Source: Candidatus Magasanikbacteria bacterium GW2011_GWC2_37_14 (lineage in GTDB: Bacteria; Patescibacteriota; Patescibacteriia; Magasanikbacterales; UBA922). From it: 64,000 bases of DNA. A program made the position numbers and the translations under genes. Positions 4,099-59,066 of the stretch are shown in pieces. Location of the stretch: NCBI GenBank assembly GCA_000990355.1, contig LBSX01000008.1, forward strand, positions 40,316 to 104,315, given 5' to 3'. The number at the start of each line of letters is the position of its first letter. Within the stretch, counting starts at the first letter, position 1. Under the pieces are notes generated by a model, which saw only the letters and a program-made list of their open reading frames with translations, made no database searches and was not told where the DNA came from.

Positions 4099-4103
4099 AG
4101 AAT

Positions 4104-4190
4104 TTCCCTCCCCTTTATAAGGGGAGGGCAGGGAGGGGTATTAAACACCTACCCCCTCTTAATCTCCCCCTTATAAATGGGGAGAAAACC
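4104..4190. repeat. GC-rich palindromic repeat cluster (family A: C4-5 TTwwAA G4-5 hairpins)
   Basis: ccctcccctttataaggggagggcagggaggggta ... ctcccccttataaatggggag. The same unit recurs at 8950, 12205, 13150, 16480, 51900, 56316, 62150 and 62518. Confidence 0.8.
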
Positions 4191-7789: not shown

Positions 7790-8065
7790 TTATTTTACTT
7801 CATCCACCCCACCTTTACTCCATGGATTACAACGAAGAATGCGCCAAATAGTTTTGGGAATGCCAATAAGCAGGCCTCTTTTTTTTATTATTTGATAACC
7901 ATACTCACTGCAAGTTGGGTAAAATTTACAATACCCATGTGGGTGCAAAAATTTAAACCAACCATGGTCAGGGGAAAGGGTGTGTTGATAAATTCTTATC
8001 AAGAATAAGAAAGGAAAGCGGAGTAAGTAGATTACTTTTTTTATATAGTTTTTCACAATTTTCAA
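7790..8065 (-). CDS. yidD: Membrane protein insertion efficiency factor YidD
   Basis: CKFYPTCSEYGYQ motif (the C-x-F-x-P-x-C-S-x-Y hallmark). Confidence 0.85.
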   Translation of the reverse strand: MKIVKNYIKKVIYLLRFPFLFLIRIYQHTLSPDHGWFKFLHPHGYCKFYPTCSEYGYQIIKKRGLLIGIPKTIWRILRCNPWSKGGVDEVK

Positions 8066-8183
8066 TTTACATTTTTCAATTTACAATGAATTCCCAATTA
8101 AATAATTTTCAATATTACAATTGTATCTTGAAAATTGATAATTTATTGTAAATTGATTATTGGTAATTGTAAATTAAAACTAA

Positions 8184-12204: not shown

Positions 12205-12295
12205 TGTTTTCCTCCCCTTGGAAAGGGGAGGACAGGAGGGGTTGATTGTATTACTGTCAACCACCCCTCCCCCCTCCTTTCCAAGGAGGGGAAAC
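12205..12295. repeat. Family A GC-rich palindromic repeats (two inverted units)
   Basis: cctccccttggaaaggggagg ... cccctcccccctcctttccaaggagggg. Confidence 0.8.
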
Positions 12296-12303
12296 CAGAT
12301 TTG

Positions 12304-13086: not shown

Positions 13087-13248
13087 AGTGGGATTATTAT
13101 AACAGATTTTGATAAATTAAAAAAACCAGTTTTTTAAGCTGGTTTTTTGGGCTAACCCCTTCGCCCTTTGGGGCACCTCCCCTTCGTAAGGGGAGGTCAG
13201 ACACTGCCCCCTCCTTACGAAGGAGGGGTGGCCGGAGGCCGGGGTGGT

Positions 13249-17161: not shown

Positions 17162-18493
17162 ATGAAACAAAAGCGTGGCAGCATTTTAATGTTTAGTTTG
17201 GTGTTTGGTGCAATTGCCAGCTTAATTTTGATTACCGGTGTGGGTAGTTATGCTTTGTTTGAAAATAAAGCTTCCAATAAAAAATTAGATCGTGATTTAG
17301 CTTTTCATATTGCCGAAGCAGGAATTAATTATTATCGTTGGCATTTGGCGCATAACCAAACCGATTATACCGATGGTACAGGCCAGGCTGGTCCTTATGT
17401 ACATGAGTATAATGACATGAATGGAAATTTAATTGGTTATTTTTCTTTGGCTATTACTCCTCCGCTGGCTGGTAGCACAGTGGTAAAAGTAGAATCAACA
17501 GGTTGGGCTTTGACCTCACCAAATTCTCAACGCACAATTCGGATTCGTATGGGTGCTCCTTCGGTTACCAATTATACCTTTTTGTCTCATGCTGGGTTAT
17601 CTTTTAGTTTTACTACTGTGGTTCATGGGCAAGTACATGCCAATGGTGAAATTCGTTTTGACGCCGAAACTGATTCTTGGGTTAAGAGTGGTATAAGAGT
17701 ACAAGGTGGTGGACATCCAAAATCTTTTTGGGTTTATCCTGTTCCCACCATTGATTTTTACTCTGTAACTTCTGATTTAAAAGCAATCAAAGATTTGTCC
17801 GATGCCGGAGGAATTCATTTAACTTCTTCGGGAAAAGAAGGCTACCAAATAGTTTTTAATGGTAGTTCTTTTGCTTTGTATAAAGTAAATACCAAAGATT
17901 GCTATAATGGTGAAGGTCGTTGGCGCAAACGTTGGGGTGATTGGTATTGGGAAGGCACTACTTATTGTTTTGATGTAGGTACACACAGTTTTGTAAATAA
18001 TTATAATATACCGTCCAATGGAGCAATTTTTGTAGAAGATAATGTGTGGGTAGAGGGTACTGTAGATGGGCGAGTAACAATTGGTGTGGGTAAATTCCCA
18101 GTAAAATCTCCTTATAAAAATATTATTATTAATAATAATTTACGTTATACGGCGCAAGGAGGAGATGATGTAATTGGCTTAATGTCTCAGGGAGATATTG
18201 TAGTGCCTTTTGAAGTGCCAGATAACATGTATATTGACGCAGCTTTGCTTTCGCAATTTGGAAAAAATTACCGGCCATATTATGATGAAAATTTAAAAAC
18301 CAGTTTAACAATCAATGGTTCGCAAATGGCTTATGAGGGTGGTGGTTGGAAATATGTAAATGGTCTTGGCCATGTTATTTCTGGTTTTCATGATACTTAT
18401 CATAATTACGATGGTAATTTGCGTTATTACCCACCACCCGGGTTTCCCGTCGGCACCACTTATGAATTAATTAGTTGGGAAGAAGTGGAGTAG
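17162..18493 (+). CDS. PilX-like minor pilin / pilus assembly protein
   Basis: N-terminal KQKRGSILMFSLVFGAIASLILITGV hydrophobic segment typical of the PilX N-terminus. Translationally coupled to the upstream pilin gene. Confidence 0.5.
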   Translation: MKQKRGSILMFSLVFGAIASLILITGVGSYALFENKASNKKLDRDLAFHIAEAGINYYRWHLAHNQTDYTDGTGQAGPYVHEYNDMNGNLIGYFSLAITPPLAGSTVVKVESTGWALTSPNSQRTIRIRMGAPSVTNYTFLSHAGLSFSFTTVVHGQVHANGEIRFDAETDSWVKSGIRVQGGGHPKSFWVYPVPTIDFYSVTSDLKAIKDLSDAGGIHLTSSGKEGYQIVFNGSSFALYKVNTKDCYNGEGRWRKRWGDWYWEGTTYCFDVGTHSFVNNYNIPSNGAIFVEDNVWVEGTVDGRVTIGVGKFPVKSPYKNIIINNNLRYTAQGGDDVIGLMSQGDIVVPFEVPDNMYIDAALLSQFGKNYRPYYDENLKTSLTINGSQMAYEGGGWKYVNGLGHVISGFHDTYHNYDGNLRYYPPPGFPVGTTYELISWEEVE

Positions 18494-18530
18494 GCAGTTA
18501 ACAGTTACCAGATAGCAGATATCATTGTGT

Positions 18531-18899
18531 ATGAATGATGATGTGTATTTTAAAAAATTAAAGTTAAAAATCCATGCTTTTGTTTTGCTAACCTATAATA
18601 TCACCAATGATTTTCCAAGGTCAGAACTTTATGGAACTGTTTCACAATTAAGGAGGGCGGCTGTTTCCGTGATGTTAAATTTAGTGGAAGGTTTTGGAAG
18701 AAGGAAAGAAAAAGTAAAATTAAATTTCTTTGAAATATCATATGGTTCGGCAAGAGAGTGTAAATATTTAATATTTTTGGCTTTGGAGAAAAAATGGATT
18801 GATAAACAGGCATATGAAAAGATTTTTGTTTTGCTAGATGAAATATCAGCTATGTTATGGAGTATGATTGTTGGTTTGGAAAAAAATATTGAGGAATAA
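18531..18899 (+). CDS. Four-helix-bundle protein (TIGR02436 family, also known as the 23S rRNA intervening-sequence protein)
   Basis: Family signature SQLRRAAVSVMLNLVEGFGRR ... SARECKYLIFLALE. Start set to the ATG at 18531. The gene is bracketed by roughly 30-nt inverted repeats. Confidence 0.75.
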   Translation: MNDDVYFKKLKLKIHAFVLLTYNITNDFPRSELYGTVSQLRRAAVSVMLNLVEGFGRRKEKVKLNFFEISYGSARECKYLIFLALEKKWIDKQAYEKIFVLLDEISAMLWSMIVGLEKNIEE

Positions 18900-18976
18900 T
18901 TTTGCTATTTGCTATCTGTTAATTGTTATCTGAAAAAATTGGTTTTTAAAAAAGATTTCTGTTATAATATAGTCGT

Positions 18977-19837
18977 ATGAAAAATTCGACAGTTGTTCGT
19001 AAAGGAGTAATCGTGGCCGCGGGTTTGGGTACTCGTTTTTTGCCAGCCACCAAAGCCGTACCAAAAGAATTATTACCAGTTTTAGACAAACCAGTTATTC
19101 AGTATTTGGTAGAAGAAATGGCAAATAGTGGTATTACGGAAATTATTTTGGTAATTAACAAACAAAAAACTGCGATTATTGAACATTTTAAACGCGATAA
19201 AAATTTGGAAAATTTATTAAAAAAAGCTAATAAATATTCAGCCATTGAACCGCTGGTAAATTTAATTAAAAAAGTTAAATTTACTTATGTTTACCAAAAT
19301 CAACCTTTGGGTAATGGTCAGGCCTTGCTTTGTGCCAAAAAAGCTGTGGGCAATGTTCCTTTTGCTTTTTCTGATGGTGATTCAATAATTGATAGTGAAG
19401 AACCAGCCATTGGTCAGGTAATTAAAGCTTTTAAAAAAGTAAATAGTTCTATAATCGGCGTACAAAAAATAAAAGATAAACAAGCCATGACCAAGTATGG
19501 GAATGTTTATGTAGAGACGCATAATAATGCGTCTGTACCAAAAGTCTATAAAGTCCAAAAGATTGTGGAAAAACCAAGTGTTGCTGATGTGTCACCCGAG
19601 GGCTTAATTATTGGTGGAATGCGTTACGTGTTTACTTCAGAAATTTGGTCATATTTAGAAAAAACCAAAAAAGGTAAAGGTGGAGAAATTTGGGTGGCCG
19701 ATGCGGCCAATGATTTGGCCAAGCAAGGAAATTTTTTTGCTTATGAATATAAGGGCAAGTATTTTGATACTGGCAACAAAGAAGCCATGTTAAAAACTAC
19801 GGAACATTTTTATTTAAAACATTGTTATGAAAAGTAA
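18977..19837 (+). CDS. galU: UTP--glucose-1-phosphate uridylyltransferase
   Basis: N-terminal AAGLGTRFLPATKAVPKELLPV nucleotidyltransferase motif. Confidence 0.88.
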   Translation: MKNSTVVRKGVIVAAGLGTRFLPATKAVPKELLPVLDKPVIQYLVEEMANSGITEIILVINKQKTAIIEHFKRDKNLENLLKKANKYSAIEPLVNLIKKVKFTYVYQNQPLGNGQALLCAKKAVGNVPFAFSDGDSIIDSEEPAIGQVIKAFKKVNSSIIGVQKIKDKQAMTKYGNVYVETHNNASVPKVYKVQKIVEKPSVADVSPEGLIIGGMRYVFTSEIWSYLEKTKKGKGGEIWVADAANDLAKQGNFFAYEYKGKYFDTGNKEAMLKTTEHFYLKHCYEK

Positions 19838-20543
19838 ATTAATAGTTTTTTTAGCAATTTTGGCTTGGTTTTTACCCAGCAGTGTTTTGGCTAGCACTTT
19901 TTATTGTGCTTGCAAAGATGCCGAAACTGCTTATCGTCCTTGTAAAACTTTAACTGCTACTACTTTGGCTGGTGCAGAATTGGAATGTAAAGGCATGGAA
20001 GGGAATTTAGGTTGTGATGCTACTGGAGTGAGTTACCCAGACGGAGCTACTTGTCAGGAAATTAATGAGGGATATCAGGATTTTATTAATATGGTTGTTG
20101 GGGCAAATTATCCTACGCCCAAAGAATGTAAAAGTGGTGAACAACAACAGACCTGGAAGCAGTGCATTCTTGATGCACTTAAAGAGGCTGGTAAAAGTAC
20201 ATTAAGTGCTATAGATGTAGAAAATTGTACAGGGTTGTCTTGTTATGAAGCGCCAGTAGATAGTCCAGTGGTTGGTTTAGAAGGAAAAATAAAAGATTTA
20301 AATCAAATTGGCACTACTGATGCCAATAAAATGATTGGCCGGATTATTAAAGCTATAATGGGTTTAATGGGTACTGTGTCTTTGATTTTATTTGTTTATG
20401 GTGGAGTGTTGTGGATGACTGCAGCCGGGAATAGTGAACGCGCTGGTGAAGCTAGGAAAATACTTATTTGGACTTCTTTGGGTATGATGGTGATTTTGGG
20501 AAGTTATGGAATAGTAGATTTTATATTCAAAGCTTTCGAATAA
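19827..20543 (+). CDS. Secreted Cys-rich protein with a C-terminal TrbC/VirB2-like (T4SS-type pilin) two-helix hydrophobic domain; paralog 1 of 11
   Basis: Signal peptide, then about 130 aa with 12 Cys, then the conserved domain IGRIIKAIMGLMGTVSLILFVYGGVLWMTAAGNSERAGEARKILIWTSLGMMVILGSYGIVDFI. Confidence 0.6.
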   Translation: MKSKLIVFLAILAWFLPSSVLASTFYCACKDAETAYRPCKTLTATTLAGAELECKGMEGNLGCDATGVSYPDGATCQEINEGYQDFINMVVGANYPTPKECKSGEQQQTWKQCILDALKEAGKSTLSAIDVENCTGLSCYEAPVDSPVVGLEGKIKDLNQIGTTDANKMIGRIIKAIMGLMGTVSLILFVYGGVLWMTAAGNSERAGEARKILIWTSLGMMVILGSYGIVDFIFKAFE

Positions 20544-20650
20544 TAAATTTACAATTTACATTTTCCAATTTACAATAAATTTTCAATTTTACAATTGTAA
20601 ATTGTTAATTTGTTGAAAATTGTGAATTGATAATTGAAAATTAAATTTTT

Positions 20651-24559: not shown

Positions 24560-24645
24560 TTCCTTAGCGTCATTCCCGCGCAGGCGGGAATCTTACACTA
24601 GTTAAAAAGATTCCCGCCTGCGCGGGAATGACGCACGAAGAAAGG
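24560..24645. repeat. Family B palindromic repeat pair (GTCATTCCCGCGCAGGCGGGAAT ... ATTCCCGCCTGCGCGGGAATGACGC)
   Basis: Two inverted copies. Relatives occur at 4930, 8566, 11905, 52068 and 62226. Confidence 0.8.
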
Positions 24646-33810: not shown

Positions 33811-33821
33811 ATAACATTAAG

Positions 33822-33866
33822 CAGATAACAGATAGCATAAATTGTTATTTGCTATCTGTTAACTGA
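33822..33866. promoter_or_regulatory. Family D palindrome CAGATAACAGATAGCA-(12)-TGCTATCTGTTAACTG
   Basis: Near-perfect 16-bp inverted repeat in the trxB/rpe spacer. Relatives flank the four-helix-bundle gene (18494-18523 and 18901-18930) and occur at 58895-58985. Confidence 0.7.
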
Positions 33867-43895: not shown

Positions 43896-43952
43896 ATAAA
43901 TAATTTACAATTATCAATTTACAATTTTCAAATAATTTTTAAACAAGAAAAT

Positions 43953-47962: not shown

Positions 47963-48409
47963 TGTCAGGCATTCATAAATGAATTGCACCACGTCCGCAT
48001 ACGTTTGGACCTCTGGGTATAACAATAAAGTTAAACGACAATGTTTACTTACATAAAATTATACTTAGATTAACCAGGCGTGGCAATTGACTTTTCTGTT
48101 AAATTGATCGCTTGAAGGCGATCTTTTTTTCCACGAAAAGTGGCGTAATGAAATAAGCCACTTGGAGTAGGAACCGCGTGATGAGCAAAGCGAATTTTAC
48201 GCGGTAAACACGGTGCCACATCGTGGCAGGCTCTCAGATCACAGACAGCGTAGATAAAAATCTAAATTGTCTGTGGCAAGAGATTTAGGGATAGAACTTT
48301 GACAATTCAAATTAAAAATATTAAATAGGTCAATTCAAAAATAAGCGGTCTTATTAAAGATTTAATAAGATAAAAAGAAAGCACAATTGTGTGTTTTCGT
48401 AGTATGCAT

Positions 48410-51690
<3,281 letters not shown>

Positions 51691-51894: not shown

Positions 51895-52340
51895 ATGGCG
51901 GTGTTTTTTTTGTCTCCTCCTTACGAAGGAGGAGTACCCCGACGTCGCAGTCGGGGGGAGGTGGTTAGCAAATCCCCTCTAGAGAGGGGTGTCGCGTCAG
52001 AAGCGACGGGGTGTGTTGGTTTCCCTCCCCTACGAGGGGAGGATTAGGGTGGGGTTTCGTCACCGTCGTCTGTCATTCCTGCGCAGGCAAGAATCCACCC
52101 GCCTGCCATCGCTATGCTCTAGCATTAGCGGGCAGGGAAATCGTCCAATTACTCTTACCTCCATGGAGCAAAAACTTCGCGCTAAACAAACACTGCGGAA
52201 AATTTAGGACTCGTCATTCGTTTTTGCTCGTGCGAGCCTAAAGAGGCTCTAGACGAGCAAATCCTTCTTCGCTATAGAGCTCCGAAGGAACACTCTTCCT
52301 CGCCTCTAAATTTTTACCTTGTGTTTGTGCGCGCGTGAGT
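51895..52340. repeat. Dense cluster of GC-rich hairpin repeats (families A and B plus further palindromes) downstream of 5S
   Basis: ctcctccttacgaaggaggag, ccccgacgtcgcagtcgggg, cccctctagagagggg, tccctcccctacgaggggagga, gtcattcctgcgcaggcaagaat, tttgctcgt...acgagcaaa, and GTTTGTGCGCGCGTGA (also present at 62487). Confidence 0.75.
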
Positions 52341-58887: not shown

Positions 58888-59066
58888 ATTAGCAGATAAC
58901 AAATAGCAGTTATCATATGACAATGATAAAACAAAAATTTGTTTTTGGCAAATTGTTATCTGCTATCTGCTATCTGCATCATGACAATTGTCCACAGGCA
59001 CCTACTCTTGCCAAATTGCTTTATTCTTGGTATATTTTTTTTATTAAAATTATAAGTAAATACTAT

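Follow-up and report, generated by a model that had tools for sequence, protein, structure and literature searches.

A four-helix-bundle gene between mirrored tandem-heptamer arms: a probable counterpart of rRNA intervening sequences between protein-coding genes

The cassette and its gene-less counterparts

The 64,000-nt stretch of contig LBSX01000008.1 from Candidatus Magasanikbacteria bacterium GW2011_GWC2_37_14 that was analysed here in full (the window) contains a short gene for a four-helix-bundle protein of the S23p family, flanked on both sides by tandem heptamer arrays that are inverted copies of each other. Upstream of this cassette is a pilus-like gene and downstream of it a galU-like gene; two palindromes built from the same repeat occur elsewhere in the window without a gene. 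The features in question are the following.

17162-18493: upstream gene, encoding a 443-residue pilus-like protein without a Pfam match; stop codon TAG at 18491-18493
18494-18524, plus strand: 5' arm, GCAGTTAACAGTTACCAGATAGCAGATATCA; heptamers CAGTTAA, CAGTTAC, CAGATAG and CAGATAT, then CA
18531-18899, plus strand: four-helix-bundle (S23p) gene; ATG at 18531, TAA ending at 18899; 369 nt, 122 codons
18903-18932, plus strand: 3' arm, TGCTATTTGCTATCTGTTAATTGTTATCTG; TG, then the inverted heptamers CTATTTG, CTATCTG, TTAATTG and TTATCTG
18964-18969, plus strand: TATAAT box, 7 nt before the ATG of the downstream nucleoside triphosphate (NTP) transferase (galU-like) gene; outside the cassette, marking its boundary
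33821-33866: gene-less palindrome; GCAGATAACAGATAGCA at 33821-33837 and its inverted copy at 33850-33866, i.e. 17-nt arms with 12 nt between them
58892-58977: gene-less palindrome; arms at 58892-58908 and 58954-58977 with about 45 nt between them, 5 nt upstream of the start of an xth-like gene

The cassette is closely fitted to the genes around it. The 5' arm, which begins 1 nt past the end of the pilus-like gene, stops 6 nt short of the four-helix-bundle ATG; the 3' arm begins 3 nt past the stop codon of the four-helix-bundle gene. A repeat finder reports the arms (18495-18524 / 18903-18932) as a 30-nt inverted repeat that is 83% complementary and separated by 378 nt, in agreement with a preliminary description of this DNA, which had given about 80% complementarity over about 30 nt around a 369-nt TIGR02436 gene. 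What that description had missed is that each arm is a tandem array of four CAGWTAN heptamers. The long-range pairing of the arms that it had considered is seen in the minimum free energy (MFE) fold of 18485-18945.

The 122-codon open reading frame (ORF) matches PF05635 (23S_rRNA_IVP) with 95.9 bits (E 2e-27; cutoff 33.8) and TIGR02436 with 93.9 bits (E 6.5e-27; cutoff 24). The AlphaFold2 (AF2) monomer model, with a predicted local distance difference test score (pLDDT) of 95.8, consists of helices 3-27, 30-55, 60-86 and 92-121. Foldseek places this model closest to 2GSC (Xanthomonas Xcc0516; template-modelling score, TM, 0.85) and 2RLD (Bacteroides S23 family; TM 0.8), followed by Avd, a protein of diversity-generating retroelements (DGRs; 4DWL and 8UB7), and phmmer also finds 2GSC by sequence at 1.2e-8. 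The structures of 2GSC, 2RLD and Avd hold five chains each, as crystallised or imaged, and the Xanthomonas S23p protein (2GSC) is a homopentameric ring (PMC4990558). The four-helix-bundle proteins are basic, with a median isoelectric point (pI) of 9.3. No defence-system model in PADLOC matches the four-helix-bundle protein. An identical protein is recorded from Candidatus Magasanikbacteria GW2011_GWC2_37_14, a member of the Patescibacteria (CPR).

Our comparisons with relatives draw on 80 loci encoding related proteins, one genome per species, together with the contigs of the closest homologs (L-numbers below denote these loci and contigs); the sample is mostly Patescibacteria, with a few records labelled otherwise, and is biased toward relatives of this protein and toward Patescibacteria. 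Against its orthologs the window gene has ratios of nonsynonymous to synonymous substitution rates (dN/dS) of 0.07-0.18, with dS saturated (>1.1). Judged by these ratios, the gene is under purifying selection.

A search of the window for GCAGATAACAGATAGCA with up to 3 mismatches returned 10 matches, all at 18494-18926, 33821-33866 and 58892-58977, against a mean of 0.09 and a maximum of 1 match in shuffled sequence, and a two-heptamer pattern matches at the same three loci only. The 64 kb hold dispersed copies with terminal inverted repeats, one being a cassette and two being gene-less. These are the three loci named in the preliminary description (the second pair of arms being about 45 nt apart), whose neighbour names trxB, rpe and xth hold as well. 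The palindrome at 33821-33866 fills the gap from the rpe stop codon to the start of the trxB-like gene, both genes lying on the minus strand. Both short palindromes fold far better than shuffled sequences, with z-scores of -3.9 to -5.4.

The interior of 58892-58977 (ATCATATGACA... / ...TTTTTGGCAAATTGTTATCTGC) matches the sequence on either side of the ORF in the cassette of L002, and this palindrome therefore looks like a deletion derivative. A gene-less hairpin in L004 aligns with the final codons of the L015 gene. Since two hairpins thus keep cassette sequence, the short palindromes are best read, on such alignments, as cassettes that have lost their gene or as miniature copies, and not as virgin target sites.

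Palindromes of other kinds are also present in the window. A second heptamer family without a gene (ACAATTT / AAATTGT) is found at 8052-8179, 20543-20640 and 43899-43933; one of its sites lies between rnpA and yidD, 20543-20640 fills the gap between the pilin gene and the solute-binding protein (SBP) gene, and 43899-43933, upstream of a CsoR-like repressor gene, resembles a lone left arm of this family. Just upstream of an 807-codon ORF, 1613-1702 is a tandem-octamer palindrome (AACATTAA / TGTTTTAA), a unit type that brackets four-helix-bundle genes in other Patescibacteria (e.g. L045 and L035). G+C-rich palindromes, unrelated to the heptamer family, stand out in this A+T-rich genome at 4103-4188, 12205-12297, 13171-13233, 24567-24634 and 51900-52330; among them are CCTCCCC...GGGGAGG types and one perfect palindrome of 28 nt, GCGTCATTCCCGCGCAGGCGGGAATCTT, and a dense cluster of such palindromes lies directly downstream of the 5S rRNA gene. 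A weak tblastn match after the 5S gene (52064-52141; E 0.014) was considered as a second four-helix-bundle remnant and rejected, as the region holds G+C-rich palindromes and no credible ORF.

Arms and insertion sites among relatives

The arrangement seen in the window recurs around most members of the family. Flank statistics cover the 83 non-redundant genes for which sequence was available on either side. When the 5' flank is matched in inverted orientation to the 3' flank, the best score has a median of 16.5 (n=83), compared with 8 for 169 other genes of the same loci; the inverted-repeat score exceeds the 95th percentile of the controls in 81% of cases (Mann-Whitney p 6e-29). Three or more tandem units of 7 or 8 nt are found on both flanks of 71 of the 83 relatives, but of only 17 of 209 control genes. 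The period of the arms is 7, 8 or 14 and nothing else, and RRCA cores are spaced by 7 nt 96 times and by 8 nt 142 times. Arms have 4-5 units as the mode, and the array lies close to the coding sequence at either end, with a median distance of 4 nt to the start and 4.5 nt to the stop codon. Furthermore, AACAT/TAACA is enriched about 16-fold in 5' flanks, and likewise in 3' flanks when these are reverse-complemented.

The sequence of the unit differs between cassettes (CATATTAA, CGCATAA, CATGAAA, GTATTAA, CAGATAG and others), and it tracks the protein tree: protein distance and sharing of arm 6-mers are correlated with a Spearman coefficient of -0.32, a value reached in 0 of 500 Mantel permutations. 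Where unit variants occur within an array, their order in one arm mirrors that in the other more closely than the sharing of units by itself would produce (35 cassettes lie above the median of the null and 8 below; Wilcoxon 6e-6), which fits pairing of the arms. A phase relation between repeat units and start or stop codons was considered and discarded, being present in only about 5-8 of the 83 cassettes. Arms can enter the coding sequence: in L015 (4340-4400) the last codons, ATATCTGCTATCTGA, belong to the 3' arm, and in L002 (6001-6015) the opening of the gene, ATGACAGATAAG, continues the heptamer. In view of a figure legend in PMC10910872, tandem 7-8-nt repeats beside these genes might add array-like signals, or cassettes might insert in such loci.

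Outside Patescibacteria-like DNA, CAAATAA arms are found in L206 (GC 0.47) and octamer arms of ATTTACGA around two genes in L198. The single viral relative, L209 (2900-3480; IMGVR_UViG_3300029249_000148), has inverted heptamer arms of the CTGGTCA/GACCAGT type. Carriage by phages was rejected, this one distant relative being the only one among 2.9 million viral contigs.

Gene-less copies extend further. A metagenome scan for three consecutive CARATAR units returned 27 palindromes of the window's heptamer, nearly all of them gene-less, on contigs with a median GC of 0.53 and a maximum of 0.67; their handedness is consistent (27 vs 3). L107, L129, L132, L139, L145, L148, L174 and L178 carry such gene-less CAGATAG/CAAATAG palindromes on contigs of GC 0.53-0.67, apparently from soil bacteria. 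That these A+T-rich repeats lie in high-GC contigs speaks for maintenance or import of the repeat sequence itself.

The history of the cassette can be followed at orthologous sites. Its neighbours in the window are genes for trigger factor, three pilus-like proteins, the NTP-transferase, a pilin and a solute-binding protein, and likewise in relatives; in Magasanikbacteria the gene order pil594, pil217, pil443, [four-helix-bundle gene], galU-like, pilin, [second site], SBP is conserved. Between pil443 and the galU-like gene, a four-helix-bundle gene is present in the window and in L002, L004, L014, L016, L018 and L054. The protein identities of these orthologs are like those of the neighbouring genes, and their arms are still CAGATAG/CAAATAG despite a dS of more than 1.1. 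Because the site is shared across relatives and dN/dS is low, we take the window cassette to have been resident for a long time under selection, and not to be a recent insertion. In L054 (1600-2150) the gene at this site is apparently disrupted by a frameshift, while both arms persist.

Other sites in the same gene order have changed. The closest homolog of the window protein (75% identity) lies at the pilin-SBP site of another genome and has the same arm family, a sign of relocation. That site is occupied in L002, L008 and L054, in L002 by a different paralog with octamer arms of AGTAATAC; it holds the gene-less ACAATTT-heptamer palindrome in the window and a gene-less palindrome of another unit in L004. 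Between pil217 and pil443 three states are found: the genes abut in the window, a gene-less CAGATAG hairpin separates them in L002, L004 and L016, and a full cassette does so in L015 and L052. Comparison of these aligned sites shows that elements have been both gained and lost at orthologous intergenic positions, and it is from such differences in occupancy between species that we infer mobility. The preliminary description had proposed, as one of two readings, that the three loci of the window are empty and occupied sites of a mobile cassette caught at different stages. One orthologous site in three states and turnover across species speak for part of this idea; the short palindromes, however, appear to be gene-less cassettes and not untouched targets, and the window cassette itself is old, its site being occupied in at least six related genomes.

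Read-through, cleavage and the competing explanations

Altogether, we consider it probable (roughly 0.6) that the element at 18494-18932 is a complete S23p cassette of the same kind as the ORF-bearing intervening sequences (IVSs) of 23S rRNA, situated between protein-coding genes, transcribed by read-through and cut by RNase III at the stem formed by its arms. An IVS-like cassette outside rRNA had been suggested before, and the S23p gene, the long inverted repeat and heptamers like those of Coxiella support it well. As to transcription, the four-helix-bundle gene shares its orientation with both neighbours in 70 of 72 cases, against a baseline of 88% for adjacent pairs in these loci. The arms were also considered as promoters and rejected: full sites near the ATG occur in 5 of 83 cassettes and 27 of 395 controls, and -10 boxes alone in 7 of 83 and 69 of 399. 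Given this co-orientation and the lack of promoter enrichment, read-through transcription is most likely.

By homology with the rRNA elements, the cassette would be transcribed from the upstream genes, and in the transcript its two arms would form a stem of about 30 bp with each other. This stem may then be cut by RNase III, which would release a near-leaderless mRNA for the four-helix-bundle protein and separate the flanking messages. Such a separation would explain why operons and rRNA alike tolerate the insertion. At 33821-33866 and 58892-58977 the same element would be present minus its gene. The ring protein is also a candidate for binding the arms, with their 7-8-nt period and typically 4-5 units each. 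Cassettes in the sample fill the intergenic gap, leaving about 40 nt on each side. A signature motif of RNase III itself was not present in the 64 kb of the window.

The downstream gene seems to be served separately. CTGYTATAAT before the galU-like gene is also kept in the relatives L002 and L004 (region 18960-18979 and its equivalents), and the conservation of this box after the cassette indicates that the galU-like gene has its own start signal. With the TATAAT only 7 nt from the ATG and no Shine-Dalgarno sequence upstream of that ATG, the sequence suggests that the galU-like mRNA is leaderless.

Several observations weigh against an explanation based on a cleaved RNA stem. The fold energy of the whole 461-nt RNA (18485-18945) is ordinary, with z -1.5. 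Mismatches between arms comprise 60 G-U and 69 A-C, without the excess of G-U that would be anticipated if a sense-strand RNA helix were under selection; A-A is the commonest mismatch, one clade has systematically CATGAAA in the 5' arm and CTTGAAA in the 3' arm, and in several cassettes the unit variants differ between the two arms of the same element. The missing G-U bias, the A-A mismatches and the CATGAAA/CTTGAAA clade argue against a purely RNA-level role. Moreover, a stem alone is insufficient to account for the 7/8-nt periodicity, for a unit conserved at saturated dS and for the shared AACAT core. From its distribution among relatives the window cassette is old and vertically inherited, and no target-site duplication could be defined in the cross-species comparison of empty and filled sites. 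A transposase is encoded neither in the cassette nor beside it.

The serious rival, or complement, to the RNA stem is therefore a role of the arms in DNA or in protein recognition. On this explanation, which we regard as possible though clearly less probable than the one above, the arms would be arrays of tandem binding sites (iteron-like or subterminal-repeat-like) for the ring protein or for a host protein, the cassette would propagate itself and leave gene-less copies in the manner of miniature inverted-repeat transposable elements (MITEs), and RNA pairing would be incidental. The mismatch spectrum, in which G-U is not favoured over A-C, agrees with it, as do the retention of the unit between orthologs at dS >1, the AACAT/TAACA core that stands inverted on both flanks at a strict spacing of 7-8 nt, and the modal 4-5 units per arm alongside five chains in the solved relatives. 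The basic nature of the proteins, the A+T-rich CAGATAG palindromes of one handedness in contigs of 0.5-0.67 GC and the turnover of elements at orthologous sites point the same way. Co-divergence of unit and protein fits as well, yet it is also expected from simple co-inheritance, and the mirrored order of unit variants favours pairing or hairpin-templated repair. S23p proteins have no known DNA-binding or recombination activity, the cassette encodes no nuclease or recombinase, and target-site duplications are not seen. Finally, the co-orientation of neighbours fits dependence on host transcription better than free insertion.

A more far-reaching proposal, for which we would claim only tentative standing, is that S23p proteins bind their own 7-8-nt arms in a sequence-specific manner, with about one ring subunit per unit. 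The cassettes would then form a new class of self-propagating palindromic elements without a canonical transposase, with the gene-less palindromes, also those of high-GC soil bacteria, as non-autonomous forms and the rRNA IVSs as rRNA-resident forms.

It is unlikely, in our assessment, that the palindromes are instead the primary and generic feature of intergenic regions (stabilisers of mRNA ends, processing sites or hairpins like those of the repetitive extragenic palindromic, REP, type), with four-helix-bundle genes settling secondarily in their loops. The window does hold more gene-less palindromes than cassettes, including the gene-less ACAATTT and AACATTAA families, stop-to-start gaps are filled exactly, and about half of the control genes have an array of at least three 7/8-nt units on one or both flanks. 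However, generic hairpins would not be expected to co-diverge with the protein, to be retained by a cassette that sits at another site, to keep the sequence of the cassette's interior ends when gene-less, or to lie, in most of the 83 cases, within about 4 nt of either end of the ORF. The same design is found inside rRNA, and no T-run follows the stems. At one orthologous site any element is absent, so the operon does not need the hairpin. The arms were also examined as intrinsic terminators and rejected, neither 18494-18932 nor 58892-58977 having a G+C-rich stem with a T-run; their stems are A+T-rich.

The suggestion of the preliminary description that the palindrome is an operator through which a transcription factor co-regulates three promoters is very improbable: sigma-70-like hexamers do overlap or adjoin all three loci (TATCAT boxes beside both gene-less palindromes, and TTAACA-N16-TATCAT within the left arm, 5 nt before the ATG), but half-sites spaced by 12, 45 and 378 nt do not have the geometry of an operator, two of the three loci are stop-to-start intervals of co-directional genes, the four-helix-bundle gene keeps the architecture across phyla while the units change, and promoter-like sites by the ATG are not above controls.

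Relation to known elements

IVS elements, the S23p family and the Coxiella heptamers are already known. In the searchable literature we did not find this flanking-repeat architecture beyond the Coxiella IVS paper. Apparently undescribed are the mirror-image packaging of most family members outside rRNA in tandem 7-8-nt units, the co-divergence of arm unit and protein, and the gene-less palindromes of the same repeat, including those in high-GC bacteria. With packaging, co-divergence and gene-less palindromes in several phyla, what was an isolated curiosity of rRNA becomes a definable, widespread class of genetic element. Such a class would predict that the arms are cut by RNase III, that the ring protein binds its cognate repeats and that each palindrome family has a cognate gene in the same genome. 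It would also account for intergenic palindromes and for the 'hypothetical' genes of 120 residues that clutter annotations of Patescibacteria.

Among known repeats, the cyanobacterial short tandemly repeated repetitive (STRR) sequences are heptanucleotide tandem repeats (CCCCAGT, TTGGTCA, CAACAGT). They share with the present arms the form of intergenic tandem heptamers, and the CTGGTCA-type arms of L209 are reminiscent of them, which we regard as a lead only. Correia/NEMIS elements of Neisseria, REP/BIME, ERIC and RUP are MITE-like intergenic palindromes, and Correia hairpins are RNase III substrates. The gene-less copies described here are likewise short, bounded by inverted repeats, scattered between genes and transcribed with their neighbours, but their arms are built from tandem 7-8-nt units, the full-length form encodes a four-helix-bundle protein and not a transposase, and the elements are without an identified target-site duplication. 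In the RAYT/REPIN system, a REP-associated tyrosine transposase (RAYT) is flanked by inverted REP sequences. Common to both is one small gene between inverted copies of a repeat that also occurs genome-wide as a stand-alone palindrome; the cassette protein, however, is not an HUH/tyrosine transposase, and its arms are tandem heptamers or octamers instead of GTAG-headed REP hairpins.

A closer relationship by protein exists with DGRs. The S23p/four-helix-bundle family is the parent of the DGR protein Avd, and both proteins are basic and share fold and superfamily. Avd is a pentamer that binds reverse transcriptase and RNA. Identity of the window protein with Avd was nevertheless rejected: its scores with the Avd models stay below their cutoffs (NF033474, 26.1 bits against 80; PF22296, bAvd, 26 against 40), and sequence identity in the fold match is only 10-13%. 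Among the neighbouring genes of the cassette there is neither a reverse transcriptase nor a template/variable repeat pair.

The nearest parallel is the IVS of 23S rRNA. ORF-bearing rRNA intervening sequences, known since 1993 and represented in Leptospira, Coxiella burnetii, Brucella and Xanthomonas, are sited in helix 25 or helix 45 of 23S rRNA; to our knowledge, it is not understood what the S23p protein does or how rRNA IVSs arose. The window contains an rRNA region of its own:

48400-51687: 23S rRNA gene; 3288 nt compared with 2925 nt in the Rfam model, i.e. 363 nt longer; a 5S gene is also in the window

An IVS in this 23S gene was looked for and rejected. The gene contains no S23p ORF, and its surplus is made up of several short expansions (e.g. 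74 nt near model position 228 and about 60 nt near position 283). In the loop of helix 45, a classical IVS site, only 7 nt are extra. Homology to 23S rRNA was likewise absent from all 80 related loci.

In the 23S IVS of Coxiella burnetii, an S23p ORF is preceded, just before its ATG, by three tandem GACAGAT and a degenerate fourth copy (PMC4990558). Copy number of GACAGAT (3-4) differs between Coxiella strains, the heptamers lie within a 28-bp terminal inverted-repeat stem, and the first repeat is where RNase III cuts (PMC4990558). With the register shifted, GACAGAT becomes CAGATGA, which is 1-2 bases away from the CAGATAG/CAGATAA of the window. The two elements differ in that the window cassette lies between pilus-like and galU-like genes and not in rRNA, in that the window genome has gene-less copies elsewhere, and in that the window gene is, by its dN/dS, under purifying selection, whereas decay and a probable lack of translation are reported for the ORF of Coxiella. 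In both, a long terminal inverted repeat encloses an S23p/PF05635 gene in its loop, and tandem heptamers stand right before the ATG, with little or no leader or Shine-Dalgarno sequence. Sharing gene, stem and heptamer with the canonical IVS, the window element is therefore best regarded as its counterpart outside rRNA.

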